The notes under the pieces were generated by a model. It saw only the letters and a program-made list of their open reading frames with translations. It did no database searches and had not been told where the DNA came from. From a virus (taxonomy: Duplodnaviria; Caudoviricetes), in the IMG/VR virus record IMGVR_UViG_3300027542_000004, positions 1 to 64,000 of that record: a DNA stretch of 64,000 nt; one strand, written 5' to 3'. Each line of letters begins with the position of its first letter. Positions within the stretch are counted from its first letter, which is position 1. This document shows, piece by piece, positions 3,077 through 62,869 of this stretch. The translations under genes were made by a program, and so were the position numbers.

Positions 3077-3200
3077 GAAGACATAGCGAAAATTGGTAGG
3101 CGCATCACTTATTCAACATAAAGCCCGTAGTCGGGAGGTGCCGAGTGGATAAGGAAGTATGGTAGGCGATACAATGTGGGTTCGACTCCCACTGTCTTCA
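3077..3200 (+). ncRNA. tRNA-like RNA with expanded anticodon arm
   Basis: Acceptor GAAGACA/TGTCTTC+A, D arm GCG..TGGTA..CGC, T arm GTGGG-TTCGACT-CCCAC; ~70 nt between D and T arms. Confidence 0.65.
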
Positions 3201-22879: not shown

Positions 22880-25800
22880 TTAGAGATTTTTAGTATTTTT
22901 CTTGATTTCAGCAATGTCAGCTTGCATCGTCTGAATAGGCTTGACAATCGCCCCAGTGTTTTCACTGATAGTCTGCAATTCGATGTAGATTTTTGCAAGC
23001 TGACGCTCGATGTTATCCTGATGAACGTTGAAACGGCTATATTCCATTGCAATCTGGATAAGTTCATCGGTCATGTCCGCAAGAGTCATTGCAGAAATGT
23101 TGTCGGTAGCCTTGATTGATTCCACAGCTTCCTGCATTGCCGTCATCCTGCCAATGATGGCAAGACCCGTATCTTCCGTAATGGTAGTAACACCGGCTTT
23201 TGATGCCTCCTGCGAATACGCACTCCCGGCATCCCATCCCATAGCCTTTTTAAGACTATCGCGGTCAGTTATGGCACTATTTACGATGCTGTCCCACTCC
23301 TTTTTCAGTTTGGCTTGCTCTTCTTCGGTCAGACCATTGTCATCATTCATAGCATCTGCAAACCCCTCATACCACTTTTTCAAGAGGTCATTATATTTGG
23401 AGTTCATAAGGCTATTGATAACGGCCTGCTGCATCATCTTTTCCCAGTTGCTTGCGAAATCTTTAGAATCGGATTCCATATCAAGCAACAGGGATTTGAA
23501 GTCATCCTTGACGCTATCAAAAGAAACATCGGTCAACGACTCCCTGAAAGCGGTCTCAAGCTCTTCCAGTTCCTTGTAGTATTCGATGTATTCATCCATG
23601 AACTGAGCCGCATCTTTGTAGCCATCATCGGCAAGACCCTTGATTTTGGCGTAAAGGTCAGGTGCGCTCTGTGCAATCTTAGCCATCTGTTCTGACGTGA
23701 GTTTCCAGAAGTCACCGGCACTCTGCACGGATTTACCAACAATGGAGGATATGCGCGACCAGTCAGAACCGCTCATTCCTTTGTTGATTTTGTTATTAGA
23801 CGACTTATGACCACCAACGCCTAAGAAGCCATTTGAATATGCTGCACCAGAACGCTGCATCATTTCTTGGGTATTCTTCATTGACTGCTCAATATCGGCT
23901 TTCTGCTGACGATACAAGTCACCCATATCGGCAGTAGCAGCTTCCCTCATTTCCGTAGCAAGGTTATCCACAGCCTTACGAAGAGCCTCATTGGTTGCTG
24001 TCAGGCGTTCAATATCTTTTTCAAGATTCTTATCACTTTCACCGTTACCCCACCAATCAAACAGACCACCCATTGTGAAGACTGACTTGAATATTCCGAG
24101 AATACCTTTGTATAGGCTTTCTCCAATCTGTTTGAAGATTTCACCAGATAGGATATTGTCGATAATACCGCTTATGGCATTGAATACAGAATCAAGAATG
24201 GAAGATATAAGCGTACCCACACCATCCTTGAGGATGTCAAGGATTTTAAGAACTGCGGCAATAATCTGACCGATAAGACCGGCTTTACTAAGACCCTCGG
24301 TAAGTTCTGCCGGCATTTCCTTTGCTATCGCGGCACCTGCTTCTGCCATGCCGTCGTTCAGTTCCTTTGTGTCTTTCCCAATATCCTTGAGTGCTTTCAG
24401 TCCATCGATGCCTCCTTTAAGTTGGTCAAATGCGCCCCATAGTTCAGCCAACTGTGAAAGACCTGCGCCACTGAGGAACGTATAGATTTCACTGACAGGT
24501 TGCATCACATTCTTAGCGGTCATTGATAATAGTGTGCCACTGCTTTGAACCTGATTCTGTGCCTCCTGCATAGCCTGATTGTTTGCAACGACAGTGGCGG
24601 CATAATTATCCATCGCTGCTTGAGCGGCTTCAACGGCATCGGTATATTCTTTCAACTGAGCCGGAGTTGTATCTGCATTATTTCTTGCCTTTTCAAGATT
24701 GATGTCAGCCGTATTCTTAGCCTCGGTCAACTTTGCAAGTTCCTCGTTTACCCTTGTATCGTTTTCAGTCGCAACCCTTAATTCATTAAGGGCGTTCTGA
24801 TAGTCTGCAAGGGCAGAAGAAAGGTCTTTCCATGATTCAGTTGTGCCGAGTTGGGTACGAAGATTCTTCATCGCATTGATAACCGTCTGCTGATTGTCAG
24901 CTCCGGACTTTCTGAAAGCATCTGACTTGACATATTCCTGCAACTGCTTATAGAGTGGCTCAAGCTGACCACGCATAATGACACCGACATTATCAAAGAC
25001 TGAATACCAATCAATCTTACTGGTCATAGCCTTTGATTCAAGATTTCTTATTTCCGTGTCGCGTTGGGCCGTAAGAGTCAATTCTTCACCCTTATTCTGG
25101 GCATTGCGAATCTTTTCAGCATATTCTTCTGCAATGGCAAGCTTCTTCTGCTGAAATGTTCCATACTCCCTAAGATAATCACGCATCGCAGTGACATCGG
25201 TCTGATAGATTTTCTGCAATTCAGATGCCTCATTGTTGGCGATAAGAGAAAGCTGGGTATCATAGCCGACATTCTCCCTTGCCTGTTCCTGATATTGCTT
25301 GCGCATTTCAGCAAGCTGGGTATCGGAGAATTGAGCATAATACTGATATTCCTTGCGGTCTTTACCGCCTTTCATCCATTCTTGAAGGGCATTTTTCTCA
25401 AGAGTGGACGCTTCCTTTTTCAATTCAGCCTCAAGAGCCTGACGTTTCTTTTCAGACGTGAATTTAATGGTGGCTATTTCCTTTTCGGAATTATCCTCCA
25501 TCTGTGCAATTTCAAGTTCACGCTGACGATTCTTTTCAGCCTGTAAAAGTTCCGTAGTGCGCTTCTCTTCCTCAAGCTGTGCCTTGCGAAGTTCATAGGC
25601 TCTCTGCTTGGGGTCATCCTTTCCGTTTTTCTTATCCTTTTTAGTCTTATCCCTTTTATCAAGGGCTTTCAACTGCTTTTCATAATACTTATAAAGTTCA
25701 CTGCTTTGGTCAACCTTTTGCATCTGAGCGTTGATGGACTTGCGGATTTCAGAAAATTCCTCGGTTGTTTTGGCGTTCTGAATCTGGCTTTCAAGGGCGG

Positions 25801-28800
25801 TCTTGATAGACTGCATAGCCTGACTCTGATTGCCTTTATTTCGGTTGTATTCGCCCACCATTAAGTCGTTTTTTAACTGACGATACAATCGCTTATCAAC
25901 ATCAGACATTGCACCCTCGCCCAACTGCGTACCATAACGGTCAATAAACTGCTGCAATAGTGCCGACTGCTCGGAATTAAGATGGTAGTTCTTGCCGCCC
26001 ATCTTGAAATTGCTTCGTAGACGGGCGTTCCGTACAATCGCGTTATAGGCATCCAAATCGGCTTTTGCCATCTTTGTGCCGGGAGTGATTTTGCCGTTCT
26101 TTCCATACTTGGCAAGAAGATTCTGCAAGGTCTGACGTTCTGCGCCGGTCGTATTCAAGACCTGACCGCCCACATCACGGAGCGTAATCTTGATTTTGTC
26201 AAGTGTATTTAGTGCAATATCAAGATATTTGGTGTCAATGTAAGGCGTGGCTACGGCGTTGTCAACGTCTTTCATCTTGTCTTCCGCTTGCGCTGCCTTA
26301 ACCGACGTTTCATCCAGCGCAGTGTTGTCGGTTGTCGGCGTAGCTGACGATTCATCGACATCGCCAATCTTGCCTTCCGTTTGTTCGGCGGCTTCAAAAA
26401 GTTCATGTATGTTGATAGGGTCTGCCAAAGGTTTGACCGGTTTTGCATTGATTTCATCAACCTCTTTCGATACCTTTGTCAGCTCCTCGGTCAATTTCTT
26501 GGAATCAAAGGTGGAATAATCAATTTCCGGCTGTGCCGCAGCCGCACGTTCAGCGGCATCCGCAGCGGCATTTGCTTGGGCTTGCGTCTTCTCGGTCAGT
26601 TTATCAAGCGTATTGGTTTTGTTAATAAGCTCGGAAACAAGTTTGGATGTATCCTTGATGTCAAGAACATACTGCTCGGCAAATCCCATCTGTTTCGCCA
26701 GTGCCTTTGCATCCATGTTTGCGGTTTGGGCAATTTCCGTCTGCAAGCGGGCAATTTCTTGACGTGCCTTTACAGCGGCTGCGTTTTCAATCTTTTGACC
26801 ATTCTCGGTATAGGTTACATTAGCGGCATATTCCTTTTCAGCATCCTCAAGGAGTTTGACCATTTCAGTAAGTTCAGCCTTTTTGTTTTCCACCGTACTT
26901 GCTATGGTGTCGGCCATAATCTTGGATACTTCGGCAGCTTCCCCGGATGAATCGTTTTCAATGATTTCTTTCATTTCATCCTTGAAAGATGTAGTGGCGG
27001 CATCCTTTTCTTCCTGAATAGTTGCAAGACGATTGGCGGTCTGTCGTGCTTCGCCCTCTGCCAGAATCAGTTGGTTAAGCTGCGCACGGGCTTCATTTAA
27101 CTGCTCAATCTTATCCCTTTCCTTGTCGATGTGGATACCGTATTCTTCCGCCATCTTGATAAGCTCCTCTACGGCATCCTTGTGTACCCGGCTATCCTTG
27201 TTCACGGAGTTCATTACGGCGTATAGCGTATCGATGTTGTTTTTCAGCTTCAACGTGGATTCGCCAAATCTTTCAGACATAGCGGATGATTCCTCAGCTT
27301 CGTCCTTAAACGACATAAATAGACCGATGACGGTTGTCAGGGCGGTAATTATCATGCCGAAGGGATTGGTCATAAAAGCGACCTTGAGGCTATTCCATGC
27401 GTTCTTGCAGGCGTTGGTGGCCGCAGTCAGCGCATACTTTCCGATGGTCAATGCTTTATCCTTTGCCGTGGCAAGTGCGGTCACGATTGTGCCGCGACTG
27501 GTTGCGGCGGTATTTACGTTTGTGGCCGCAGTATTGGCGGTGGTTGCGGTTGTTTCTCCAATGACGGCGGCTGTGGCGGTCTGTTTCTGCACGGCTTGCT
27601 GTGCGGTAATCGCGCCATTCAGTTCCTTTTCTGCTGTGTTTATACCCTCGGCTGCTGACTGCTGGGCGGTTATAGCGGAAGCCAGCTCCTCTACTGTCGC
27701 CATGTATTCTTCGGCGGCGGCTTTCTTATCGTCGGCATCGCCGGCGGCTTCTGCCATCTCCATCAGTTCTTTTGCAGACTCAACGCGCCTTTCCGCAGCT
27801 TCTACAAGTTGGTCGCTTGCGGCTTTCTGCATGTTCGCGCTTTCAAGTGCCGCCTGCTTTGTATCAACGAGTGCCTGTGCATAGTCGCGCTCATTCTGCA
27901 AGCGTTCAGCGGTATCATTCGTGATTATTCCGTTGGCATTGGAGTCGTTGATGTCGGCATCAAGGCCACGCCCGGCTTCTTCGCGCTGGGTCTGCATGTC
28001 CTTGAGATGCGTTTCGTAGGTCTTCTGCGCTTCTTCTGCGATACGACGCTCATTCTCGGCGATGCGCTGCTGTTCCTGCTGCCATAAACGCCCCTGCTGG
28101 ATTGAGTCGGCATACGTCTGGTCGATAGACCCTTCCTCAAGAGCCTTGCGTATGTCATCGTCGTAACCCTCCATCATCTTGGCGTTCTGCATTTCCTGTA
28201 TCTTGGCAAGTTCGGCATTGAAGCCATCCACGATGCCCTTTGAAGCGTCGATAACGGATTGCTTGGCTGCGAAATTGGAAAGCATCACGGAGGTCTTGTA
28301 AACACCGAAAGCCGCCGCAGCGGTGGCGAGTACCGGAATGATTCTGCCGATATTGTCAACAATAGTGGAAGCCGCGTCAATAACGCCCACAAGCGCACCC
28401 TCCATATTCTGACCCATGTCATTAAACATCAAGTCCATCGAGTCATTCAGCTTGGCGATTGCACCCGGTATGGTCTTCGATGCCGTTTCCGACATCTTGT
28501 AGTATTTGCCTCCCTCGCTTGTTGCGTCAAGAAAAGCCTGCTGAACCATCTCGGCTGAAATCTTGCCCTGCGACATTTCTTCCTTGAGCGCACCGATAGA
28601 TTTGCCGGTCTTTTCGGATATGACCTGCAATGGCTGGAAGCCTGCGTTTACCATCTGCATCAAGTCCTGACCCATCAGCTTGCCCGCTGCCGACATCTGC
28701 GAAAACGCAAGCGAAAGCGACTGAAAGCGGCGGGTATCGCCCATAGCAATATCGCCGATAGCCTGCAAGTATCGCGGAACTTTGTCAGCGTCGATGCCGA

Positions 28801-29302
28801 AGCCGAGCATCATCTGTGCAGTGGAAACAGTAGGTGCAAATTCAAGCGGCGATATTTTGGCAAACTCCTGTAATTCGGCGTTCAGCTTCTCGCCCTTACG
28901 CTTGCCAATCATCGTTTCGATAGATGCGTTCATCTGCTGGAACTGACCGCGTATGCTTGTGATTTTGGTAAGGAACTCACCCAGACCATACACGCCGGCA
29001 AGACCGCCCACGGCCATCATCGGTCGCGTCAGTAAGTCCTGTATGCGGTTGACCTCGGTAAATATTCCACTGAGGTTTTTCTTGATGCCAAATTCCATTT
29101 CCGCACCACTGCGCATTGCGGCCTGTGCAAGCTGACGATAACGCGCCGTGCTTTCGGCGAGTTTCTTGTTCAGTGCATCAATCGACGCGCCGGCCTGCCC
29201 CGGCCTAAAATTCTGAATTTGGGTCTTGGTCTTTGCGATTTCCTGTTGTAAACGTATCAGTTCGGAGTAATCCGCATCTACGTCAAATGCTAAATATGGC
29301 AT
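22880..29302 (-). CDS. Tail tape measure protein
   Basis: 2140 aa helical, Ala-rich ORF; tape-measure domain (FSQMSAAGKLMGQDL.Q...AG); hydrophobic segments. Confidence 0.92.
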   Translation of the reverse strand: MPYLAFDVDADYSELIRLQQEIAKTKTQIQNFRPGQAGASIDALNKKLAESTARYRQLAQAAMRSGAEMEFGIKKNLSGIFTEVNRIQDLLTRPMMAVGGLAGVYGLGEFLTKITSIRGQFQQMNASIETMIGKRKGEKLNAELQEFAKISPLEFAPTVSTAQMMLGFGIDADKVPRYLQAIGDIAMGDTRRFQSLSLAFSQMSAAGKLMGQDLMQMVNAGFQPLQVISEKTGKSIGALKEEMSQGKISAEMVQQAFLDATSEGGKYYKMSETASKTIPGAIAKLNDSMDLMFNDMGQNMEGALVGVIDAASTIVDNIGRIIPVLATAAAAFGVYKTSVMLSNFAAKQSVIDASKGIVDGFNAELAKIQEMQNAKMMEGYDDDIRKALEEGSIDQTYADSIQQGRLWQQEQQRIAENERRIAEEAQKTYETHLKDMQTQREEAGRGLDADINDSNANGIITNDTAERLQNERDYAQALVDTKQAALESANMQKAASDQLVEAAERRVESAKELMEMAEAAGDADDKKAAAEEYMATVEELASAITAQQSAAEGINTAEKELNGAITAQQAVQKQTATAAVIGETTATTANTAATNVNTAATSRGTIVTALATAKDKALTIGKYALTAATNACKNAWNSLKVAFMTNPFGMIITALTTVIGLFMSFKDEAEESSAMSERFGESTLKLKNNIDTLYAVMNSVNKDSRVHKDAVEELIKMAEEYGIHIDKERDKIEQLNEARAQLNQLILAEGEARQTANRLATIQEEKDAATTSFKDEMKEIIENDSSGEAAEVSKIMADTIASTVENKKAELTEMVKLLEDAEKEYAANVTYTENGQKIENAAAVKARQEIARLQTEIAQTANMDAKALAKQMGFAEQYVLDIKDTSKLVSELINKTNTLDKLTEKTQAQANAAADAAERAAAAQPEIDYSTFDSKKLTEELTKVSKEVDEINAKPVKPLADPINIHELFEAAEQTEGKIGDVDESSATPTTDNTALDETSVKAAQAEDKMKDVDNAVATPYIDTKYLDIALNTLDKIKITLRDVGGQVLNTTGAERQTLQNLLAKYGKNGKITPGTKMAKADLDAYNAIVRNARLRSNFKMGGKNYHLNSEQSALLQQFIDRYGTQLGEGAMSDVDKRLYRQLKNDLMVGEYNRNKGNQSQAMQSIKTALESQIQNAKTTEEFSEIRKSINAQMQKVDQSSELYKYYEKQLKALDKRDKTKKDKKNGKDDPKQRAYELRKAQLEEEKRTTELLQAEKNRQRELEIAQMEDNSEKEIATIKFTSEKKRQALEAELKKEASTLEKNALQEWMKGGKDRKEYQYYAQFSDTQLAEMRKQYQEQARENVGYDTQLSLIANNEASELQKIYQTDVTAMRDYLREYGTFQQKKLAIAEEYAEKIRNAQNKGEELTLTAQRDTEIRNLESKAMTSKIDWYSVFDNVGVIMRGQLEPLYKQLQEYVKSDAFRKSGADNQQTVINAMKNLRTQLGTTESWKDLSSALADYQNALNELRVATENDTRVNEELAKLTEAKNTADINLEKARNNADTTPAQLKEYTDAVEAAQAAMDNYAATVVANNQAMQEAQNQVQSSGTLLSMTAKNVMQPVSEIYTFLSGAGLSQLAELWGAFDQLKGGIDGLKALKDIGKDTKELNDGMAEAGAAIAKEMPAELTEGLSKAGLIGQIIAAVLKILDILKDGVGTLISSILDSVFNAISGIIDNILSGEIFKQIGESLYKGILGIFKSVFTMGGLFDWWGNGESDKNLEKDIERLTATNEALRKAVDNLATEMREAATADMGDLYRQQKADIEQSMKNTQEMMQRSGAAYSNGFLGVGGHKSSNNKINKGMSGSDWSRISSIVGKSVQSAGDFWKLTSEQMAKIAQSAPDLYAKIKGLADDGYKDAAQFMDEYIEYYKELEELETAFRESLTDVSFDSVKDDFKSLLLDMESDSKDFASNWEKMMQQAVINSLMNSKYNDLLKKWYEGFADAMNDDNGLTEEEQAKLKKEWDSIVNSAITDRDSLKKAMGWDAGSAYSQEASKAGVTTITEDTGLAIIGRMTAMQEAVESIKATDNISAMTLADMTDELIQIAMEYSRFNVHQDNIERQLAKIYIELQTISENTGAIVKPIQTMQADIAEIKKNTKNL

Positions 29303-29470
29303 GGCTGTTGAGTTGTTATTTTCAACCAGCCAATTTACCGCTCAAGTGCGCGTTACACATTATTTTCCGCGCACGTATAGCAAACTATCAGAAAAAAGTC
29401 GTAACTTTGTATTGTAAAAGAGAAAAATTGTGCAGAAAGGGTGTAAATAACCTTTAACCCTACTGCCAAA

Positions 29471-31755: not shown

Positions 31756-31828
31756 CGCGGGTTGGAGCAGTTGGAAGCTCGCCAGTTTAACTTGCTGGAG
31801 GTCGTCGGTTCGAGTCCGACACCCGCTA
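31756..31828 (+). tRNA. Initiator-like tRNA body with AAC anticodon (reads GUU)
   Basis: C1/U72 mismatch, GCGGGT/ACCCGC stem, A73, D stem GAGC/GCTC, anticodon arm CCAGT-TTAACTT-GCTGG, T arm GTCGG-TTCGAGT-CCGAC; CCA not encoded. Confidence 0.88.
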
Positions 31829-31856: not shown

Positions 31857-32228
31857 ATGAAAAAGTTAACCCTACAAATTGACAAAAAGTGCTTTCAGGC
31901 AATTCTGAAAGGCGAGCAGAAAGTCGAGCATCGGAACGTGTATCCCAATAACGCCAAGAAGTATGTCATCGAAGAAGACAAGACTGATGAAAACGGCGAA
32001 GCCATCACGGTTGTAACACCGGTTCACTACGATGCCCTCACCCTTATCAATGGTCGCCGCAAGGATGCGCCCCGTCTGACCGTGGAGGTCGTATCGGCTG
32101 AATTTGTCGTACTGACCGACGAAGACGGCAATGATTTGACCTTTGAAGAGAATGGCGAAGTGTACTATGTTTGTCAGGTATGGTACACCCTCGGAAAGGT
32201 TCTTGAAACCGCCAACATCAACGAATAA
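31857..32228 (+). CDS. ASCH/PUA-like domain protein
   Basis: LTLQI.K..F.AIL.G.QK.E.R motif. Confidence 0.7.
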   Translation: MKKLTLQIDKKCFQAILKGEQKVEHRNVYPNNAKKYVIEEDKTDENGEAITVVTPVHYDALTLINGRRKDAPRLTVEVVSAEFVVLTDEDGNDLTFEENGEVYYVCQVWYTLGKVLETANINE

Positions 32229-32255
32229 TCATTAACCCTTTAACACTATAAGTGA

Positions 32256-32456
32256 GTTAAACGTAGAATTGATAACAACTATGGCCCCCGTCGGAACATG
32301 AACGGTGCCGGTGTCGGTGGCCGACTCGTAGCCCGTCGCACCCCTGCGGGCGTAGTTGCTGGTCGTAGCCAGCTCGGAAATCGTGAACAGCGACGCGCTG
32401 ACCTCCGTGCGGCCTTTGCAAAAGAGATTCGCGCCGCTGGTGGAACAACCGGCTAA
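32256..32456 (+). CDS. 66 aa Arg/Gly-rich protein with proposed GTT start (absent from ORF track)
   Basis: TGA-GTT-AAA opens VKRRIDNNYGPRRNMNGAG...GGTTG*; fills the gap between ASCH and PAPS-reductase genes. Confidence 0.65.
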   Translation, partial: VKRRIDNNYGPRRNMNGAGVGGRLVARRTPAGVVAGRSQLGNREQRRADLRAAFAKEIRAAGGTTG

Positions 32457-32468
32457 CGCGACTTTTGC

Positions 32469-33230
32469 ATGAATAGGTACGAAGAAACTATGCAAATAAT
32501 CCGGGGTATCCGTCAACAGACGGATACTGCCGTTTTATTTTATTCAGCCGGTGGAAAAGATGGCATCGCGTTGCTTGATATGCTTTCGCCTATCTTCAAC
32601 AAGGTCATTTGCTATTATATGTGGCTTGTACCGGGTCTTGACCACGTGAAACCCTATCTTCATTGGGCGATAACGAAATACCCGAATGTTGAGATACGTC
32701 AGATTCAGCACTATCAGCGTGATTTCTATGACCGATACGGATTCTTTCAGGAGGGTGATGGCAATCCCGATATTAAGCCTCGCAAGGTAGGCGAAGTTGA
32801 GGAGATGGTGCGTCAGGAAACCGGCATAAAATGGGCTTTCAGTGGGATGAAAGGCGTAGATGGCTATATGAAACGGATGCGTCTTCTGACATTCAAGAAA
32901 CGGAATGGCACATATATCACTGATAAAGGCATGGTCTATCCGCTCGCGGTCTGGACTAACAAAGAAGTTTTGAAATACATAGAGATGCGGAATCTTATCA
33001 AGCCTTTCGTTTACAATCCGAAAGATGTAAGTCAGGGCTTCGGTGTCGATTTGCGCTCGCTCCTTATCCTGCGTCAACGCTTCCCACGCGATTATCAGCG
33101 AACCATACGCGAGTTCCCATTCTGCGAGAAATTGATTTTTGATTATGAAAACGGCATCCTGCCACATGGTCAGGAAAAGGAGGTCGCAGAAATAATCAAG
33201 CGCATTGAAAGAGAATCAGAAGCCGAATAG
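32469..33230 (+). CDS. PAPS reductase-family (PP-loop) protein
   Basis: SAGGKDG, G.K..D...R, YPL..WT..EV..Y. Confidence 0.8.
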   Translation: MNRYEETMQIIRGIRQQTDTAVLFYSAGGKDGIALLDMLSPIFNKVICYYMWLVPGLDHVKPYLHWAITKYPNVEIRQIQHYQRDFYDRYGFFQEGDGNPDIKPRKVGEVEEMVRQETGIKWAFSGMKGVDGYMKRMRLLTFKKRNGTYITDKGMVYPLAVWTNKEVLKYIEMRNLIKPFVYNPKDVSQGFGVDLRSLLILRQRFPRDYQRTIREFPFCEKLIFDYENGILPHGQEKEVAEIIKRIERESEAE

Positions 33231-33234
33231 AGAA

Positions 33235-34119
33235 ATGAAAGAAAATAAGATTAAACAGGCTGAGCAGCGCACGGTAAAAAGAAGCGAAATCAACTTCGCT
33301 TCCTACAATCCGCGTGTCATCAGTGATGATGCAAGAAAGAAGCTCAAGAAAAACTTGCAGACTGTCGGCTTGCTTGGCGGTGTGGTCTGGAACGAGCGCA
33401 CCGGCAACCTTGTATCAGGTCATCAGAAAGTCGGCATCATGGATGCGGTCAACCGCTATGATGCGGAAACGGGCAATAATGATTACGAATTTCGTGTTGA
33501 GGTCGTTGACTTTGACGATAAGACGGAAAAAGAGCAGAACCTCTTTATGAACAACCGAGCCGTGCAGGGTACATACGACGATGATATGCTGCGCGAGCTT
33601 CTTCAAGGAATAGACTATACCAATGCCGGCTTCGACGATACCGATATGCAGCTCCTCGGTCTTGGCGATTTCGGCGACTATGATATGGGCGACATGTTCG
33701 GCGACGATGGCGAAGATGCCACGGATGGCGGCGATGCTGACGCGCCGGGCGAACCCACGGAAAGCAAAGACTGGTCAAAGGGCGATGTTGTCGGCGAGCG
33801 TGAAGACCTTGCAATCCACGATGAAATGACAAAGGAAAGCGGCGAGAATCACAAGCTCGACCGCAGCGCGGATTTTTATCAGGATAGCGAGGCCAACCAG
33901 ATAGCCCGCCACAACGAAGTGCAGAAAATCAAAGACCGCATCGCAAGTCAGAACGACGTGAACAAGGACGGCGGCATGTTGTCCTATGTAGTCATCAGCT
34001 TCAAGACACCGAGCGAGAAAGTCCGCTTCATGGAAGATTACGGCTTCGACCCTATGGCCAAGTACATCAACGGCGAAGAATTTGTAAACAAATTGGAATT
34101 TGGCGATGATGAAGATTAA
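33235..34119 (+). CDS. ParB/Srx-like protein
   Basis: YNPR.I, VWN.RTG.LVSGHQ; acidic linker. Confidence 0.82.
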   Translation: MKENKIKQAEQRTVKRSEINFASYNPRVISDDARKKLKKNLQTVGLLGGVVWNERTGNLVSGHQKVGIMDAVNRYDAETGNNDYEFRVEVVDFDDKTEKEQNLFMNNRAVQGTYDDDMLRELLQGIDYTNAGFDDTDMQLLGLGDFGDYDMGDMFGDDGEDATDGGDADAPGEPTESKDWSKGDVVGEREDLAIHDEMTKESGENHKLDRSADFYQDSEANQIARHNEVQKIKDRIASQNDVNKDGGMLSYVVISFKTPSEKVRFMEDYGFDPMAKYINGEEFVNKLEFGDDED

Positions 34120-34674: not shown

Positions 34675-35370
34675 GTTAAAAAGCCACGTAAGACAGATTA
34701 TAACGCGAGAGTCACAAAGGCACTCAAGGGAAAGGGCGTACCTCACCTTGAAGAGCCGATGTACCGCGTATCCGCGTCGGCTTTTACAAAGGCTATAAGA
34801 CGCGGCAAGGCATCGCAAGGCAGGAACGGCTGGATGGTTGACCTGCATAGCAAAAGCGAATACAAGCGGATGCGATGCTTTCTTACTCCGGACGGAAAGA
34901 CAGGTGTAGCGATAAAACGCGATGGGGATGTAGTGTCTGTATTCTCCACCAGCGGAAAACGAGGCGCAATGGCAAAAATCATACCGTTTGCGGTCGCTAA
35001 TGGTGGTCGCAAACTGGATTGTTATGCTTTCTCGGATGGCCGCAGTTCACTTCACAACATGTACGGAAGATTCGGCGCAAAGGCTCACGGCAAAATGACC
35101 TTTGACCCGCAATATAATCCTGTTTTCCAACGCACGGCGCAGGCCAATCCCGGTATGCGCAGACCCTCTCATGTCGTGGCGATGACGCTGCCGGGCAGTC
35201 TTGCCGGTGTCATGCGGGCTTACAACGCTGACAGGAAGATTGACCTTGGGCGCGTGAGGTCGTATAATGATTACGACAAGATGATGGATGACTTTCCGCG
35301 CATCTTGCACTACGCGGAAAGTCAAGCGGTGTCAGAGGCGCACTTGGCGGCGGTAAATAACCAACCCTAA
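34675..35370 (+). CDS. Basic protein with GNAT-like domain; proposed GTT start (ORF track starts at ATG 34759)
   Basis: TAG-CGA-GTT-AAA adds 28 in-frame codons; DGDVVSVF...GG.KLDC...Y.RFG resembles a GNAT fold. Confidence 0.65.
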   Translation, partial: VKKPRKTDYNARVTKALKGKGVPHLEEPMYRVSASAFTKAIRRGKASQGRNGWMVDLHSKSEYKRMRCFLTPDGKTGVAIKRDGDVVSVFSTSGKRGAMAKIIPFAVANGGRKLDCYAFSDGRSSLHNMYGRFGAKAHGKMTFDPQYNPVFQRTAQANPGMRRPSHVVAMTLPGSLAGVMRAYNADRKIDLGRVRSYNDYDKMMDDFPRILHYAESQAVSEAHLAAVNNQP

Positions 35371-36263: not shown

Positions 36264-36935
36264 ATGCCGAAGAAGCGAATTAGTAGCAAAACACCGCGCA
36301 AGCCCAAAGCCACACCCTCGTTTGATTACGAGAGTGAGGAATTTTTGTCGCAGGTCGATGCGCTTGCTTTTGAGGGCTTTTACAATACGGAAATTGCTGA
36401 CGAACTGAACATTAGCCGATACGAGTTGGAAATGGCGATTTCACAATGCGAAAAATTGCGCAACACGATAGCGTCTGCACGCGAGCGTGCGCGTGCGCGA
36501 GGCGCAGAAATGCCATCCCCGGCAATGTTTGCAAAAGTCTGGGCGAAGTGCAAGGGAAAGCGCACTCAGCTGATGAAAGAATTTGGAATCGGCTGGACGA
36601 AGCTGCAATCGTGGTTAGCGCAAGAGCCTATTTTCGTCGATATTATGGCGGAACGCGACCTTGAATTTCTGGAACAGATAGACACCGCCAGTCGCATACT
36701 TGCGTTGGGCGGCGTAAAAGGAAAGGATGAATTTAAGGGCTGGAGTCGCTACCCTGACAGTTGGATGATACGCTACCATCTGAATACGCTTGGAAGACGC
36801 TACGGCTATGGCGAGAATCCCATACAGCCGGAAGTCGCCGATGACACTATTCCAAAGGATATTGAACAGGGTATCGACATTGATAGCTGGATTCGTCAAG
36901 AAGTGGAACAAAAGAAACGGGATAAAGAAGAATGA
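36264..36935 (+). CDS. Probable terminase small subunit
   Basis: HTH-like segments; coupled to TerL. Confidence 0.65.
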   Translation: MPKKRISSKTPRKPKATPSFDYESEEFLSQVDALAFEGFYNTEIADELNISRYELEMAISQCEKLRNTIASARERARARGAEMPSPAMFAKVWAKCKGKRTQLMKEFGIGWTKLQSWLAQEPIFVDIMAERDLEFLEQIDTASRILALGGVKGKDEFKGWSRYPDSWMIRYHLNTLGRRYGYGENPIQPEVADDTIPKDIEQGIDIDSWIRQEVEQKKRDKEE

Positions 36936-38230
36936 TTATCAACCATGAGATATATTACCCCCTTTATACTGACAAGGAACATTTCATCATCCTTGTCACG
37001 GGCGGTCGTGGCTCCGGTAAATCATTCGGAATCGGCGGTTTCTTGGAACGCCTATCATTTGAACTGAAACGCAAAGGTCTATCAAAAGCGGAATCGGACA
37101 AGATTGTGCATAAAATCCTCTATACGCGCTACACTATGACCAGTGCGAACATTTCCATTATACCTGAATTTTTGGAAAAGATAGAGCTTGACGGCACGAC
37201 CCGGTACTTCCATACGACCAAAACCGACATCATAAACAAGATGACCGGTAGCCGTATTATGTTCCGTGGCATCAAAACATCATCCGGCAATCAGACCGCA
37301 AAGCTGAAATCCATCCACGGCATCACAACCTTTGTGTGCGACGAGGCCGAGGAGTGGACTTCCGATAGGGAATTTGAAACAATCGCCTTTTCAATCCGTC
37401 AGGTTGGAATCCAGAACAGGATTATCATCATTATGAACCCTACGGATAGCAACCACTTCATCTATCAGAAATACATCAAGGACACGCACAGGATAGAATA
37501 CTTTGACGGAGTGCCGGTGCAGATTTCCACACATCCGCAAGTGCTTCATATCCATACGACGTATCTTGACAACAAGGAAAATCTTTCGGAAGAATTTATC
37601 AGGTCAGCCCAAGAAATGAAAGAGCGCGACCCGGAACGCTACGGCCACATCTTCATGGGTAGATGGGCAGACGTAGCCGAGGGTGCGGTCTTCAAGAAAT
37701 GGGGTATCGTCAGCGAGTTTCCAAAGAACTGCAAGCATGTGGCTCGCGGTCTGGACTTCGGATATTCCAACGATGTCAGCGCATGTGTAAAATGCGGCGT
37801 AGTAGGTAATGACCTATACATCGACGAGCAGATTTTTGAAACCGGACTACTTTCCAAAGACCTCATAAGGAAATTAAGCGAGGATGACTCGTTTGTCTTC
37901 GCCGACAGTGCCGACCCGCGACTGATTGATGAAATCGGGCTGGGTGGTGTAATCATCTACCCTGTGGCGAAGCCAGCCGGAAGCATCATTGCCGGTATTG
38001 AAAAGATGAAATCCTTTGACAACATCTTTGTCACGAAGCGGTCATTGAACGTGCAGGAAGAATTGCGCAACTATGTGTGGGCAAAAGACAAGGATGGCAA
38101 CTACATCAACATGCCGGAAGATGCCAACAACCACTCCATCGACGCGACCCGGTATTACGTGCTTGGCTGCATCCTCGGCAAGATTCTCAAGCCGAAGAAA
38201 GTCAAGAAATCAGATTTAGGAATATTCTAA
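36932..38230 (+). CDS. terL: Terminase large subunit (PBSX-type)
   Basis: GGRGSGKS, DEAEE, NP, GLDFGY, ADSA, NH.IDA.RY. Confidence 0.95.
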   Translation: MIINHEIYYPLYTDKEHFIILVTGGRGSGKSFGIGGFLERLSFELKRKGLSKAESDKIVHKILYTRYTMTSANISIIPEFLEKIELDGTTRYFHTTKTDIINKMTGSRIMFRGIKTSSGNQTAKLKSIHGITTFVCDEAEEWTSDREFETIAFSIRQVGIQNRIIIIMNPTDSNHFIYQKYIKDTHRIEYFDGVPVQISTHPQVLHIHTTYLDNKENLSEEFIRSAQEMKERDPERYGHIFMGRWADVAEGAVFKKWGIVSEFPKNCKHVARGLDFGYSNDVSACVKCGVVGNDLYIDEQIFETGLLSKDLIRKLSEDDSFVFADSADPRLIDEIGLGGVIIYPVAKPAGSIIAGIEKMKSFDNIFVTKRSLNVQEELRNYVWAKDKDGNYINMPEDANNHSIDATRYYVLGCILGKILKPKKVKKSDLGIF

Positions 38231-48789: not shown

Positions 48790-49293
48790 ATGGATATAAA
48801 GCAAAGAATAAAAGAGGCAGGGATGACCGTCAGTGAAGTGGCGGCTCGGATGCCACGACCGGATGGAGGTGTGGGAATTGCACAGGCTTCATTATCTGCT
48901 ATAATTAATGGCAATCCGACTATAAATAAATTGAAAGACATTGCCGATATTCTTGGTATATTGCTTTCGGAACTTGTTAAGGATGAATCTTCGTTAACTC
49001 AAAGGATTCACTGCCCTTATTGTGGAAAATCAATTCGTATAACATTGACAGCAGAAAAAGAAGAGCATCGGCATACACCGATAAGGAAAACTGTTGACTT
49101 ACGTCTGAATACTGATGATGGTACAAAATATAGATATAAGCATCCCCATTCAAGAGAAGAAAGAATGGCTATTCTGGAACTTCAAACCTTACCGGGTGAG
49201 GATGGCATGGTTAGTGTCCTTAATACAAATCCCATTGATTCGGATGGAAACGAAGTATTTGATATAGAATATGACCGTTTGATGCCAATATAA
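48790..49293 (+). CDS. XRE HTH regulator with zinc ribbon and C-terminal extension
   Basis: GMTVSEVA.RM...GNPT..KL..IA..LG; CPYCG. Confidence 0.8.
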   Translation: MDIKQRIKEAGMTVSEVAARMPRPDGGVGIAQASLSAIINGNPTINKLKDIADILGILLSELVKDESSLTQRIHCPYCGKSIRITLTAEKEEHRHTPIRKTVDLRLNTDDGTKYRYKHPHSREERMAILELQTLPGEDGMVSVLNTNPIDSDGNEVFDIEYDRLMPI

Positions 49294-50064: not shown

Positions 50065-51339
50065 TTATTGTTCAGAAGTTATTTCCTCATTATCAATGGT
50101 CAACGCGCAGAAGCCTTTACAAGCTCCACGGAAACCATTGTGGTATTCTTTGGCAGTCATACGCTTCTTGTTTGGCAACTGCAAAATATCAATCGAAAGC
50201 AACATATCCTGACAGGCGACCATCAGTTTGCCATTCTCCCAGAACCATTCTCCGGGTGCGCGGAAGCCGCGAGGAATGTCAGTAAGACTTGCCTTGTGAA
50301 TCTTCACATCGGTTGCGGAATCTGCCTCAAGCAACCTTACCGAAGTCCATGCAGTCGGCACTGACCCTGCGATAGCCGGGGTCTTTGGATATTGTTCGCC
50401 ACAAATAACTGATGAATGGGCGCGTATGAAGTTATGAACGACTTCTGCGGAATCAGTCCAACGGATAAAGGCATCATTGCGGTAGAGCTTGGGCGCATGG
50501 CTCGGTTGAAAGAAATCGCATATAAGTTCTGACTGCGGAACTCCATTGCACGAATGACCAATACGCTGGATTGCATCATCCATCATATCCGCACCGAAAT
50601 TGCGAAGTCTGATATGCACTTCTTCCGCGCTTTCTTCCGGGCCTATGTAGATTCCGAGGTTGTTGATGATTTTGCCTGTATCCACACCCTTATCGATTAC
50701 GAAAGTGGTGATGCCGGTCATCGCGCTTCCGTCCTTGATTGCGGATGTGATAGTGGATGCGCCCCGGTACATTGGAAGAAGCGATGAATGGAGATTGATG
50801 ACTCCCCATTTAGGTATGCGGAACAATTCAGATGGTAATATGCAGTATTCAACCACAACTCCCAACGTGGGATTCAGATTGCGGATTTTTTGAAGAAAAG
50901 ATTCTGATTTAAGTTGAAGATGCGATGGCTGATATACAAGAAGACCTGCCTCTTCCGCATAAACACTGACAGGTGATGGGCAACACTTGTTTCCGCGACC
51001 GCAAGGCTTATTCTCCATAGTCACGACAGCAGCCACATCATATCCCTTTTCAACGAGCATCTTTAGAGTCGGCACAGCGAAATGTCCGTTTCCGAAAAAT
51101 ACAATCCTGATATTATTCCGATTCACCGGCTTTTCTTGGTCATATTCGGGATAAGCCGATATTGCGTCTTCCGGAACAATGCTATATCCATCGGCCTGAT
51201 TGACCTTAACTAAGTAATTGCCATCTTCATCCGGGCAAAGGATTCTGCACGGCACGAAAAACTGATTTTCAAATTGGTCGCCGGCGCAATGCCCAACCAC
51301 ATTTACCAAATGACCAACGCGGTATCTTGGAGCTTTCAT
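50065..51339 (-). CDS. fmt: Methionyl-tRNA formyltransferase homolog with N-terminal extra domain
   Basis: IVFFG...FAVP.L, VVT...KP.GRG, INLH.SLLP.YRGA, G.DTG, APK, C-terminal LQLP.KKRM. Confidence 0.88.
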   Translation of the reverse strand: MKAPRYRVGHLVNVVGHCAGDQFENQFFVPCRILCPDEDGNYLVKVNQADGYSIVPEDAISAYPEYDQEKPVNRNNIRIVFFGNGHFAVPTLKMLVEKGYDVAAVVTMENKPCGRGNKCCPSPVSVYAEEAGLLVYQPSHLQLKSESFLQKIRNLNPTLGVVVEYCILPSELFRIPKWGVINLHSSLLPMYRGASTITSAIKDGSAMTGITTFVIDKGVDTGKIINNLGIYIGPEESAEEVHIRLRNFGADMMDDAIQRIGHSCNGVPQSELICDFFQPSHAPKLYRNDAFIRWTDSAEVVHNFIRAHSSVICGEQYPKTPAIAGSVPTAWTSVRLLEADSATDVKIHKASLTDIPRGFRAPGEWFWENGKLMVACQDMLLSIDILQLPNKKRMTAKEYHNGFRGACKGFCALTIDNEEITSEQ

Positions 51340-51605
51340 TTTGATGAACCGGTCTGGATGTCGATACGTGCGCCGCACTGCGGACAGATGATGATAGCGG
51401 AATTTGGCTCAAGGTAATCTGTGAATAAAGAAGATACCGGCACTTCCAGCACTTTTGCAATTCGCTCAAGCGTGGATATGTTAGGATTGCCCTTTTCATT
51501 AACGATGTTGCCGAGTGTCTGAGGGGTGATTCCCATCTTTTCCGCGAGGCTTTTAAGGGTCATGCCCTTAGCAGCGACAATGTTCTTGATTCTGAATTTT
51601 GCCAT
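51336..51605 (-). CDS. XRE HTH regulator with zinc ribbon, coupled to fmt
   Basis: GMTLKSLAEKMGITPQ...NP.ISTLERIA; CPQCG; ATGA overlap with fmt. Confidence 0.88.
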   Translation of the reverse strand: MAKFRIKNIVAAKGMTLKSLAEKMGITPQTLGNIVNEKGNPNISTLERIAKVLEVPVSSLFTDYLEPNSAIIICPQCGARIDIQTGSSK

Positions 51606-60214: not shown

Positions 60215-60961
60215 ATGAAAGCTAAAATCTTTGCAAAACTAAAACAGGAGTATTCCTCTCTTGGGTTAGGCGATGAATATCTGATGTCAAAAGCCGATTC
60301 CCTTGCAGCGACCGGTCTTGTGACTGACGATAACATCGATGCTGTCGTGGCTTGCCAGCGTAAGGAGCTTGAGGGTCTTCAGAAAGCCAACGATAAGCGC
60401 GTCACTGATGCGCTTGAAAAAGAGCGTAAGAAGCATGAAGAAGAAACTCGCAAAAAGGAGCAGGAAGCCGAAGAAGCCCGTCGCAAAGCCGAGGAAGAAG
60501 CCGCCGCCAAAAAGAAAGGCGAGCATACCGACCCGGTTACAAACCCCGACGTTGAAGCCCTCCGCAAGCAGGTGGAAGAGCTGACCGCCGCCGGCAAGAA
60601 GCGCGACGAAGAATATGCGGCCAACCTGAAAACGCTTACCGAATCACGTGACAGTCTTGGAAAGCAGGTCAAGGAACTTGTTGACAAGAACGCCGCATCG
60701 GAAGCAGCCGCAGCCAAGGCAGCACGCAATGCGATGATAATGGCGAAAGCCAAAGAGTTGGGCGTTCCCCAGTGGCGTATCGACGAGGGCTTCACAATCG
60801 CGGAAGACGCGAGCGAGGAGGTCATCACCGAAACGCTGACAAAGGTTGCGAACAATATCAACACAAACATCCTGCCGGGTAGTCGTGGCGGATTCCCCCT
60901 CGCCGGCAACGAGCCGACTAAGGAAGACCTCGCTTCGATAGCTGCAAGCCTTGTTAAGTAA
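60215..60961 (+). CDS. Probable capsid scaffolding protein
   Basis: Coiled-coil, Lys/Glu-rich; first head gene. Confidence 0.7.
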   Translation: MKAKIFAKLKQEYSSLGLGDEYLMSKADSLAATGLVTDDNIDAVVACQRKELEGLQKANDKRVTDALEKERKKHEEETRKKEQEAEEARRKAEEEAAAKKKGEHTDPVTNPDVEALRKQVEELTAAGKKRDEEYAANLKTLTESRDSLGKQVKELVDKNAASEAAAAKAARNAMIMAKAKELGVPQWRIDEGFTIAEDASEEVITETLTKVANNINTNILPGSRGGFPLAGNEPTKEDLASIAASLVK

Positions 60962-60983
60962 CAACTAAACCCCAACGAGAATT

Positions 60984-61430
60984 ATGAAAAATGACATCTC
61001 ACCCAACAAGGAAACGGTTGTCTTCGGTAATGATTCCTCAGTAATCCGCAAGTACATTGCCGGCATCGCCGGTGGTCGTACACTGGACTGCTCGGATTTT
61101 GTCGATGACACTGTTCTCGCCGGCCACGTCATCATCAAAAAGGCCGACGGAAAGTATGCCCCGATGCCCGTCATCGCGGCTGTTCCCGCGAAGCCCGCAC
61201 AGGGCGAAAACCCTACTGTTGCGGCTCAGCCCGCCAAGTACGGCACACTCCCTACCGGCGCATCCTACGCCGGCGTTCTCTATCGCTCAATCAGTAAGAA
61301 AAACCCCGCTGCTTCCATTATGACGATAGGTATTGTCAATCCCGACATGACCCCCTATCCCATGACAGACATCCTGACCGCGTTCACGGCTGCCTGCAAA
61401 ATTTCCTTTGAAAAGGACGAAGAAGCATAA
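60984..61430 (+). CDS. Probable head decoration protein
   Basis: Between scaffold and capsid; GGRTLD, AGH.II, GVL motifs. Confidence 0.65.
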   Translation: MKNDISPNKETVVFGNDSSVIRKYIAGIAGGRTLDCSDFVDDTVLAGHVIIKKADGKYAPMPVIAAVPAKPAQGENPTVAAQPAKYGTLPTGASYAGVLYRSISKKNPAASIMTIGIVNPDMTPYPMTDILTAFTAACKISFEKDEEA

Positions 61431-61445
61431 AAACCGAGTATCTGA

Positions 61446-62534
61446 GTTAAACAGTCATTCTATTTCGATTACGCGCAGAAATACTTCCCCGGCCTCGTTC
61501 TGGCCGTGGTTGAACGTCTGAACGAAAAGCGCAACAACTCCGCGCAGACGTATCTCTACAAAGAGAAACTTCGCCCCCAGTTCTCGCTTGATGGTCGCTG
61601 GGCTTCCATTCTTGCCGAATACACCCGTGTAGCCGCCGACGTTGTGGCACTTGACTCCGAGCTTCCGCTCAAGAGCCGTGACACGCTGGAGGTTGCTTCC
61701 GGCACTATCCCCAAGATAGGTATGAAGCTCTACCTGACCGAAAAGCAGATGAAGGACGTTGATTCGATGATTGCACAGGGTCTTCCCCTTGAAACCATCA
61801 TCAACAACATCTTCGCCGACACCCCCCGTTGCATCGAGGGCATCTGGGAGCGCATCGAAGACATCTTCCTTTCCGAGCTTTCGTCCGGCGTGGGCATTTC
61901 CGAACGTAACAACGGCACCGGCGTGCGCATCAACATGAACTTCTATGAGGCCAATCAGTTCCTCGTATCGGCTCTGTGGAGCGCAACTACCGCCACACCG
62001 CTTGACGACATTCAGAAAGTCGTTGACAAGTCCATCGAAGACTCCAACACCATCATCGACGCATACGCCGACGATACCGCCCTCCAGCTTCTTTACAAGA
62101 ACGGTCAGGTGCGTGCGCAGTTTGCCTTTGACCAAGGCATCGCCATGACTGCATCAACAGCCATCCCCGTGCTTGACCTTTCCAAGCTCCAGCAGCTTTT
62201 CCTCACCAAGTGGAACATCCGTCTGCACCGCGTTTCGCGCCGTGTGAAGACCGAGCTTAACGGAGTTAAGCAGAACCACAACCCGTGGAAGAAAGGCACT
62301 ATTACCTTTGTCTGCGATGAAGAGCTTGGCTCGCTTGTATGGACTAACGTCGCCGAAGTCAACCGCCGTGTTGATGGTGTAGTCTATCAGGTAGCCGACG
62401 AATACATCCTTGCAAAGAAGTATTCCAAGACAGACCCCCTCCGCGAGTTCACCGCTTCCGAGGCTATGGTTGTCCCCGTGTTGAACAACGTTGACCGTAT
62501 CTATACGCTCGACTCTCAGACTGTTCAGGAATGA
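61446..62534 (+). CDS. Major capsid protein; proposed GTT start (ORF track uses GTG 61506)
   Basis: ~362 aa in head operon; frame opens at TGA-GTT-AAA 15 nt after the previous stop. Confidence 0.8.
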   Translation, partial: VKQSFYFDYAQKYFPGLVLAVVERLNEKRNNSAQTYLYKEKLRPQFSLDGRWASILAEYTRVAADVVALDSELPLKSRDTLEVASGTIPKIGMKLYLTEKQMKDVDSMIAQGLPLETIINNIFADTPRCIEGIWERIEDIFLSELSSGVGISERNNGTGVRINMNFYEANQFLVSALWSATTATPLDDIQKVVDKSIEDSNTIIDAYADDTALQLLYKNGQVRAQFAFDQGIAMTASTAIPVLDLSKLQQLFLTKWNIRLHRVSRRVKTELNGVKQNHNPWKKGTITFVCDEELGSLVWTNVAEVNRRVDGVVYQVADEYILAKKYSKTDPLREFTASEAMVVPVLNNVDRIYTLDSQTVQE

Positions 62535-62869
62535 AAGCAACCGTCCTCGTACCTTTCCGCGACAAATACGACCATGCAGTCGTGTATGCGCCCGGAGATG
62601 TAAAGGAATTTGACAATGACCGCGCAGTGGCACTGGCCGCTCGCGGTCTTGTCGAACCCTTTGCAGAAGCTCCCAAAGAACCCGAAGAAAAGGCAGAAGC
62701 CGACGCGAAGCCCGCCAAGCCTAAAGGTAAGGGCAAAGGTAAATCCACCAAAAAGGAAAAGGAAGTCGCCGATGCAGCTCCCGAAGCCGATAAGGTAGAA
62801 GCCGATGCCGACACCGAAGCTGACGCGCCCGAAGAAGCAGAAGCCGAAGATTCCAACGATAACGAATAA
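62531..62869 (+). CDS. Small head-associated protein
   Basis: F.DK....Y..GD..E....RA..L...GL motif, low-complexity tail. Confidence 0.65.
   Translation: MKATVLVPFRDKYDHAVVYAPGDVKEFDNDRAVALAARGLVEPFAEAPKEPEEKAEADAKPAKPKGKGKGKSTKKEKEVADAAPEADKVEADADTEADAPEEAEAEDSNDNE

Follow-up and report, generated by a model that had tools for sequence, protein, structure and literature searches.

How does a phage translate its major capsid protein from a gene that opens without any of the customary start codons? The question is raised by the first 64,000 nucleotides of the IMG/VR virus record IMGVR_UViG_3300027542_000004 (the whole stretch analysed here, referred to as the window), which come from a tailed phage of the Caudoviricetes and include a major capsid protein gene of the lambda gpE type. 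The phage is a mouse-gut prophage, and its capsid gene is found as a prophage gene in Muribaculaceae genomes. Here, we describe a comparative analysis of this gene, its relatives, and the single tRNA gene called in the window. The results point to initiation of the capsid gene at a GTT codon, position 61446, by a phage-encoded initiator-type tRNA with the anticodon AAC, tRNA(AAC), that is probably charged with valine and that would also start other phage genes in which GTT is preceded by GA. We put the probability of this reading at roughly 0.8.

Counted from GTT, the capsid gene occupies positions 61446..62534 of the + strand and comprises 362 codons. Its product matched PHROG 29, 'major head protein', in a profile search (1.4e-30) and the Pfam family Phage_cap_E (PF03864) at 24.7 bits, above the cut-off of 22.9, which places it within the gpE type. 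It shares both family and head-module position with the lambda gpE-type capsid proteins (PF03864, PHROG 29), the start codon being the sole difference. The 148-amino acid (aa) gene upstream shares its frame with the capsid gene and ends with the stop codon TAA 61428-30; four codons (AAA CCG AGT ATC) lie between this stop and an in-frame TGA at 61443-45, after which the sequence continues GTT AAA CAG TCA. The proposed start codon GTT (61446..61448, + strand) is therefore preceded at -2/-1 by the GA of this TGA (61444..61445), the context of all inferred starts of the form GTN. The 20 codons that follow the TGA, VKQSFYFDYAQKYFPGLVLA (61446..61505, + strand), are omitted by gene callers and contain no ATG, GTG, or TTG. 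The earliest canonical start in the capsid frame is GTG 61506, and the earliest in-frame ATG is at 61722, zero-based codon 92 counted from GTT. A preliminary description of this DNA had noted the TGA, the twenty start-less codons up to GTG 61506, and a first in-frame ATG about 90 codons into the gene, and the sequence bears it out on each point. It had also set the capsid gene apart from neighboring head genes that use ATG. This holds for the head-module genes starting at 60215, 60984, 62531, 62875, 63221, 63531, and 63836, the immediate neighbors among them, but a GA-GTT start is found in three further genes of the phage. Extensions of about 20 codons without a start are common by chance, and many occur among the stop-to-stop frames; the case thus rests on comparison with relatives.

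A protein search with the capsid protein yielded 559 homologs, 25 of which were fetched for a comparison of their starts. Ten of the 25 are 361-363 aa long, begin M-[EKNQ]-[KQR]-S-[LFI]-Y-..-FP-.-L, and have their methionine aligned exactly to GTT 61446. The remaining 15 are closer relatives of 340-357 aa with assorted downstream starts (MLAIVERL, MTAVVERL, MERLNEK, MAIIERL, and others). In a DNA comparison of 36 related loci, drawn from viral and from metagenome collections, the codon at the capsid-start position was GTT in 20 and ATG in 16. The GTT loci fall into 10 distinct lineages with protein identity down to 67%. In all of them GA stands immediately 5' of GTT, position -3 is T or A, and the in-frame TGA that precedes GTT in the window reads AGA in other lineages. 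The start GTT is invariant in the 10 lineages, while the valine codon of 'LVLA' varies among GTT, GTG, and GTA. Codons 2-20 are without stops, frameshifts, or indels, and the proportion of synonymous differences exceeds that of nonsynonymous differences in 44 of the 45 pairs of lineages (Nei-Gojobori counts). The first canonical start lies at codon 15, 17, 18, 20, 21, 39, 53, or 66, depending on the lineage. Because codons 2-20 are under purifying selection and the canonical start wanders, the 20 N-terminal residues appear to be translated, and a canonical start cannot account for them. These comparisons indicate that the true 5' end of the capsid gene is at the GTT position and that its 20 N-terminal codons are real coding sequence, in agreement with the earlier suggestion of a natural 5' end that has no canonical start and precedes the first GTG: homologs begin at the position equivalent to GTT.

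Several further observations were made at this locus. A DNA similarity search against the 'phages' collection gave one weak, unannotated match only. The C-terminus of the 148-aa protein (phrog_38330; 61407-61430), ...DEEA, is strongly conserved in phages whose capsid genes start with ATG and in those that have GTT, and in the ATG clade the stop of this gene overlaps or abuts the capsid ATG. Contigs from the RNA libraries X15, X16, and X17 overlap parts of the capsid gene; such contigs show neither transcription (DNA was possibly in the library), nor a 5' end, nor an absence of editing, and they were not used as evidence. The same applies to one X16 contig that covers 60900-61470, in which GTT lies about 22 nt from the contig end and 2 of 20 differences are unlisted.

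ARAGORN calls a single tRNA in the window, and this is a candidate for initiation at GTT. Its gene (31756-31828, + strand; to 31829 in the ARAGORN call) has the anticodon AAC, which reads GUU. It matches the Rfam tRNA model at 48.6 bits with the pair 1:72 flagged as non-standard, and its elements include C1xU72, G2:C71, C3:G70, G4:C69, A11:U24, and A73. All 50 tRNAs of a Muribaculaceae host genome were fetched for comparison; the nearest to the phage tRNA is the host initiator tRNA(CAU), with 73% identity, compared with 57% for the host tRNA-Val(UAC). In BLAST searches of three host genomes with the phage tRNA, the initiator locus was the best non-self full-length match in two, and a full-length non-self match was not found in the third. 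The phage tRNA has C1xU72, G2:C71, C3:G70, G4:C69, and A73 in common with the host initiator tRNA-fMet, and its D stem (with A11:U24), variable loop, and T loop are identical to those of the initiator. It differs in having the anticodon AAC in place of CAU, U/U rather than A/A at positions 37/38, and an anticodon stem-loop that has been wholly replaced and is without the 3GC pairs.

An A11:U24 pair in the D stem is a mark of initiator tRNAs, and the window tRNA has it, as do the six tRNAs found via Rfam. An alignment of 17 distinct phage tRNAs and the host initiator has 18 rows. All four stems (20 pairs) are formed in 100% of cells and 12 pairs covary, yet 1:72 lacks pairing in all 18 rows, position 72 being A, U, or C, and both G2:C71 and C3:G70 are invariant throughout. 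An unpaired 1:72 is described as a hallmark of initiators, and G2:C71 and C3:G70 as determinants for the formyltransferase Fmt (PMC5389676). The alignment indicates that the phage tRNA gene is a working gene under selection to keep 1:72 unpaired. With AAC instead of a CAU anticodon and its methionine identity, the phage tRNA is not a tRNA-fMet, though it is apparently initiator-like. It has A35, C36, and A73, as expected of an elongator tRNA-Val, but neither the paired 1:72 nor the Val-like body of such a tRNA. A35 and C36 are reported as the main determinants for valyl-tRNA synthetase (ValRS) (10.1101/2021.05.25.445580).

The GA-GTT signal appears to be used by at least three more genes of the phage. 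One, orf66, is a small Arg-rich gene (32256..32456, + strand) that sits in an apparent 240-nt intergenic gap, 427 nt downstream of the tRNA, and starts with TGA-GTT. Its homologs start with TGA-GTT in phages whose tRNA has the anticodon AAC (AAC phages) and with TGA-GTC or AGA-GTC in phages whose tRNA has the anticodon GAC (GAC phages), and the 14 residues ahead of the first ATG are conserved. A 231-codon gene (34675..35370, + strand) starts with CGA-GTT 6 nt past the upstream stop, its first ATG coming 28 codons later; a 41%-identical homolog in locus L217 begins with AGA-GTT at aligned residue 1. This diverged relative is the only one, a homolog not being found in L216, L218, and L219. The third, a phrog_14600 gene, starts with cGA-GTT at genome position 64260, beyond the window, and its PHROG profile is covered from position 3. 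The start is [AC]GA-GTT in six lineages of the GTT clade (mostly CGA; AGA in L005) and ATG in the ATG-clade loci L010, L026, and L032 as well as in L025, in which the capsid codon is GTT. The remaining GA-GTT candidates were rejected: one at 48998 (- strand) is antisense to an HTH gene (48790-49293), one at 36425 (+ strand) lies within the frame of another gene, and the rest of those in the genome are short, without support, and attributed to chance. The 27-nt spacers before the GTT of orf66 (32229-32255) and of the phrog_14600 gene (64233-64259; L110:1233-1259) have a common leader, TAAT..TTAACCCYTTAACAC...GA, which is also present in relatives and could be a signal for translation or for transcription.

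These starts and the phage tRNA change together. Across relatives the start codon tracks the anticodon, AAC with GTT, GAC with GTC, and TAC with GTA, and it does so for the capsid gene and for other families. A tRNA pattern scan of viral contigs gave at least 80 loci (L116-L195), with 16 distinct sequences among the matches listed; the anticodons of these 80 loci are GAC in 71, AAC in 6, and TAC in 3. Among the same matches, 46 GAC loci have an orf66 that begins with GTC and 5 AAC loci one that begins with GTT, and three further GAC loci have an orf66 GTC three codons upstream of the aligned position. An orf66 homolog within reach was not found in 25 of the 80. A 'VRRRKS' gene starts with GTT in one AAC phage, GTA in one phage with a TAC tRNA (TAC phage), and GTC in two GAC phages. 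For the capsid gene, GTT was found in the four AAC-tRNA records checked (G001, G002, G003, and G005), and the records of the GTT-capsid loci L005, L006, L008, and L009 contain the AAC tRNA. The TAC phage L119 has a capsid start of GTA and carries its tRNA on the same contig. The capsid protein tree groups the non-ATG genes in one clade (support 92/92), L119 being sister to the GTT rows. In L011 and L012, whose GAC-tRNA records are complete, the capsid gene starts with ATG. GA precedes all inferred GTT, GTC, and GTA starts, and position -3 varies among T, A, and C. Complementarity of start codon and anticodon and covariation through three states are both observed; in a private initiation system, the starts would also depend on the altered anticodon.

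Codon usage within genes does not follow this pattern. The valine codon cognate to the phage tRNA is the rarest inside the genes of GAC phages (GTC, 17.8%) and TAC phages (GTA, 18.5%), and in AAC phage genes it makes up an unremarkable 24-27%. As internal valine codon use does not follow the anticodon, a role for the tRNA in codon supply is unlikely. The rarity of the cognate codon may reflect avoidance of internal starts. Counts of the GA-context motif in 588 kb of GAC-phage loci (GTC 21, GTT 16, GTA 11) are noisy and prove little.

The window also encodes a putative formylase for such a tRNA. An Fmt-like formyltransferase gene (50065..51378, - strand) specifies a protein of 437 aa with an N-terminal extension of about 90 aa that matches both PF00551 (Formyl_trans_N) and PF02911 (Formyl_trans_C), and it is presumed to act on the charged phage initiator. 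The gene is present in G000, G001, G002, and G003, which have the AAC tRNA and a GTT capsid start, in G014, which has a TAC tRNA and a GTA capsid start, and in G015, which has the same tRNA as G014 and in which the capsid gene was not seen. Thus, it occurs in 6 of the 6 examined records with an AAC tRNA or a TAC tRNA of the L119 type and in 0 of the 4 GAC records. The latter comprise two complete records with ATG capsid genes (G007 and G008) and two that are 81-84% complete (G017 and G018). It is absent as well from G016, a TAC record that is 62% complete. A peptide deformylase (PF01327) was not found in the 96.6-kb record.

Based on these observations, we propose that the phage tRNA, and not the host methionine initiator tRNA, starts the capsid gene. 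By analogy with an engineered initiator tRNA of the same anticodon, i-tRNA(AAC), it would probably be charged with valine by the host ValRS through A35/C36, and the charged tRNA would then be formylated, probably by the phage Fmt-like enzyme, and be placed on GUU in the ribosomal P site. Through the GA before GTT, pairing with the anticodon loop may reach as far as U37/U38. The capsid protein is accordingly predicted to have the N-terminal peptide (f)VKQSFYFDYAQK under a GTT start. The purpose may be to make the translation of virion genes depend on whether the phage tRNA is expressed. Put more broadly, it is likely, if somewhat less so than initiation at the capsid GTT itself, that the phage owns a natural orthogonal initiation system that consists of a valine-aimed initiator tRNA, a dedicated formyltransferase, and a five-base GA-GUU signal. 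Such a system would control the capsid gene, a tail-module gene, and others independently of host AUG and fMet and would produce proteins with valine or formyl-valine N-termini.

Three other explanations place the start of the capsid gene elsewhere or restore an ordinary one. That a sequencing or assembly error removed an ATG, as the preliminary description had considered, deserves practically no weight: no points in its favor were found, and many independent contigs show the same junction, identical in L001-L005, L014, L017, and L018 (TGAGTTAAACAG). Furthermore, GTT persists in relatives at 67-88% identity, and a DNA contig from X13, a run that is possibly itself the source of this DNA, has 0 differences over 60900-62600. 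Recoding, whether as read-through of TGA 61443-45 (and TAA 61428-30), as a frameshift fusion to the 148-aa protein, or as a sense reading of TGA, is hardly credible. It draws on the fact that the upstream and capsid genes are in the same frame, separated by TAA, four codons, and TGA, but the relative frame of the two differs between lineages, and a frameshift fusion was rejected on this ground. Sense reading or read-through of TGA was rejected since the capsid gene itself terminates at TGA where its homologs terminate, ARAGORN finds no suppressor tRNA in the window, and the codon preceding GTT is AGA in several lineages. The ATC at 61440-42 (position -6) seemed conserved across the first four lineages but was likewise rejected as a start: in both the window and L007 the next codon is TGA, and L019 and L021 lack this ATC. 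A start at GTG 61506, giving the 342-aa protein as annotated and leaving the 20 upstream codons as an untranslated remnant of an ancestral N-terminus, has more to recommend it: this GTG is the first canonical start, a database cluster of 92 member sequences (P0001) is called from it, and the Pfam alignment, which begins at profile position 43 and residue 60, is also compatible with it. The preliminary description had held that homologs starting at the position equivalent to this GTG would speak against its view of the 5' end, but the homologs' ATG starts align to GTT, and relatives do not share the GTG: their first canonical start ranges in position from codon 15 to codon 66. The 19 codons upstream of GTG are under purifying selection in 10 lineages without stops or indels, GTT is fixed while other valine codons drift, and the called starts of close homologs are inconsistent with one another. 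We consider the GTG start very unlikely.

A different alternative accepts a start at or near GTT but assigns it to the host methionine initiator, by weak non-cognate initiation or by re-initiation, and regards the phage tRNA as a Val-GUU elongator that the host lacks. The host does have tRNA-Val(UAC) as the sole valine tRNA among its 50, the native E. coli initiator is reported to start weakly at GUU (10.1101/2021.05.25.445580), and the 15 nt to the upstream stop would permit coupling. A host methionine initiator would not, however, cause the start codon to switch with the phage anticodon in several families. The tRNA body is initiator-like and not Val-like, with 1:72 unpaired in every row of the alignment, and internal valine use does not track the anticodon, as the codon cognate to it is the rarest in GAC and TAC phages. 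This alternative is unlikely, and initiation by the phage tRNA remains the reading that we prefer.

Several points weigh against that reading. Support on translation, charging, and formylation is comparative throughout. The survey pattern fixed A11:U24 and U37/U38, so that these features are independent only in the six tRNAs found via Rfam. Many of the 80 survey loci are near-identical, independent codon-anticodon switches are few, and the non-ATG capsid genes form a single clade; one AAC phage (L043/L135) carries a diverged variant of orf66 that starts with ATG. The match of the Fmt-like protein to TIGR00460 (fmt), at 189 bits, is just under the NCBIfam equivalog cut-off of 201.5. Within the tRNA, U37 is unusual in any tRNA, and the 3GC pairs of the anticodon stem are absent: the window tRNA has A29:U41, G30:C40, and U31:G39, and C30:G40 is found in 11 of the 18 rows, all of them GAC tRNAs. 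The E. coli initiator is described as non-functional after losing its 3GC pairs (PMC6393288). Natural initiators with au/GC/gu stems are documented in mycoplasmas and alpha-proteobacteria (PMC5389676), and the anticodon stem of the phage tRNA departs further than these variants. Finally, the host has only the UAC anticodon for valine among its 50 tRNAs and no tRNA-Val(GAC/AAC), so an additional elongator role for the phage tRNA is possible.

The closest known counterpart is synthetic. In the literature covered, from which subscription journals and supplementary files were outside scope, no natural initiator tRNA with a non-methionine anticodon was found, only engineered ones. The engineered E. 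coli i-tRNA(AAC) is reported to initiate at GUU with valine and formyl-valine (10.1101/2021.05.25.445580, Hutvagner et al.; 10.64898/2025.12.21.695813, Scopelliti et al.). Its bottlenecks are described as charging by ValRS, for which the rigid 3GC stem is discussed as a likely handicap, and formylation (10.1101/2021.05.25.445580). The Vmax of Fmt is given as 60-fold lower for valine, and overexpression of ValRS and Fmt as improving initiation by i-tRNA(AAC) (preprints 10.1101/2021.05.25.445580 and 10.64898/2025.12.21.695813). Both the engineered and the phage tRNA combine an initiator body with the anticodon AAC and GUU starts. The phage system, in contrast, is natural, occurs in Bacteroidota, and has a function inferred from sequence. 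The engineered tRNA keeps 3GC, whereas the phage tRNA is without 3GC and has U37 and U38, and the phage has in addition a fixed GA context and an Fmt-like enzyme of its own. By this analogy, the different anticodon stem of the phage tRNA and the phage Fmt would fit the two bottlenecks of i-tRNA(AAC); for engineering, nature appears to address charging by means of a different anticodon stem and formylation by means of a dedicated Fmt.

Two more familiar phenomena can be set beside the proposed system. Phage suppressor tRNAs also alter the reading of the phage's own genes, mainly late and structural ones, and likewise cause gene calling to fail, but they act in elongation on stop codons, whereas the target of tRNA(AAC) would be a sense codon, read in initiation. 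The common non-AUG start codons (GUG, UUG, and AUU) are one position off AUG and are read by tRNA-fMet; GUU is two positions off and is matched by a dedicated tRNA. If the proposal is true, natural initiation is not bound to the methionine initiator, and a virus has built a private start codon of a kind hitherto confined to synthetic biology. Virion genes would be untranslatable without the phage tRNA, which could serve as late-gene control or as a guard against leakiness in the lysogen. Ribosomes of Bacteroidota do not use Shine-Dalgarno pairing, and it would become a question of mechanism how they select an initiator without 3GC, with U37/U38 and a GA context. For annotation, such genes are truncated or missed by gene callers: the capsid protein is recorded at a length of 342 aa, and orf66 falls in what looks like an intergenic gap. 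Two cultured carriers, Muribaculaceae bacterium Isolate-036 (Harlan) and Lepagella muris NM04_E33, make the question directly testable.

The genes that follow the tRNA (31857-34119) are a phrog_625 gene, orf66, a gene of the PAPS-reductase family (PF01507, 25.8 bits), and a 304-aa gene, and a large terminase-like open reading frame of 432 aa lies at 36932-38230. This gene order suggests that the tRNA stands at the start of a + strand block of packaging genes and structural genes. Upstream of the tRNA region, the - strand has a very long open reading frame of 2153 codons (22880-29341). Two other tRNA-like sequences were encountered. At 3077-3200 of the window (+ strand) there is an RNA whose acceptor stem, D arm, and T arm are normal but in which a large insert replaces the anticodon arm; it matches the Rfam tRNA model at 35.2 bits and is not called by ARAGORN, and 102-nt versions of it in two related records (L039 and L041) score 49-51 bits. 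The other, in a host genome (L100; G011:C55:18421-18492), is an unusual tRNA(CAU) whose D stem (GAGC/GCTC) resembles that of an initiator and which has U37/U38 like the phage tRNAs. Its 1:72 is apparently unpaired (A opposite C), and it may belong to another prophage.

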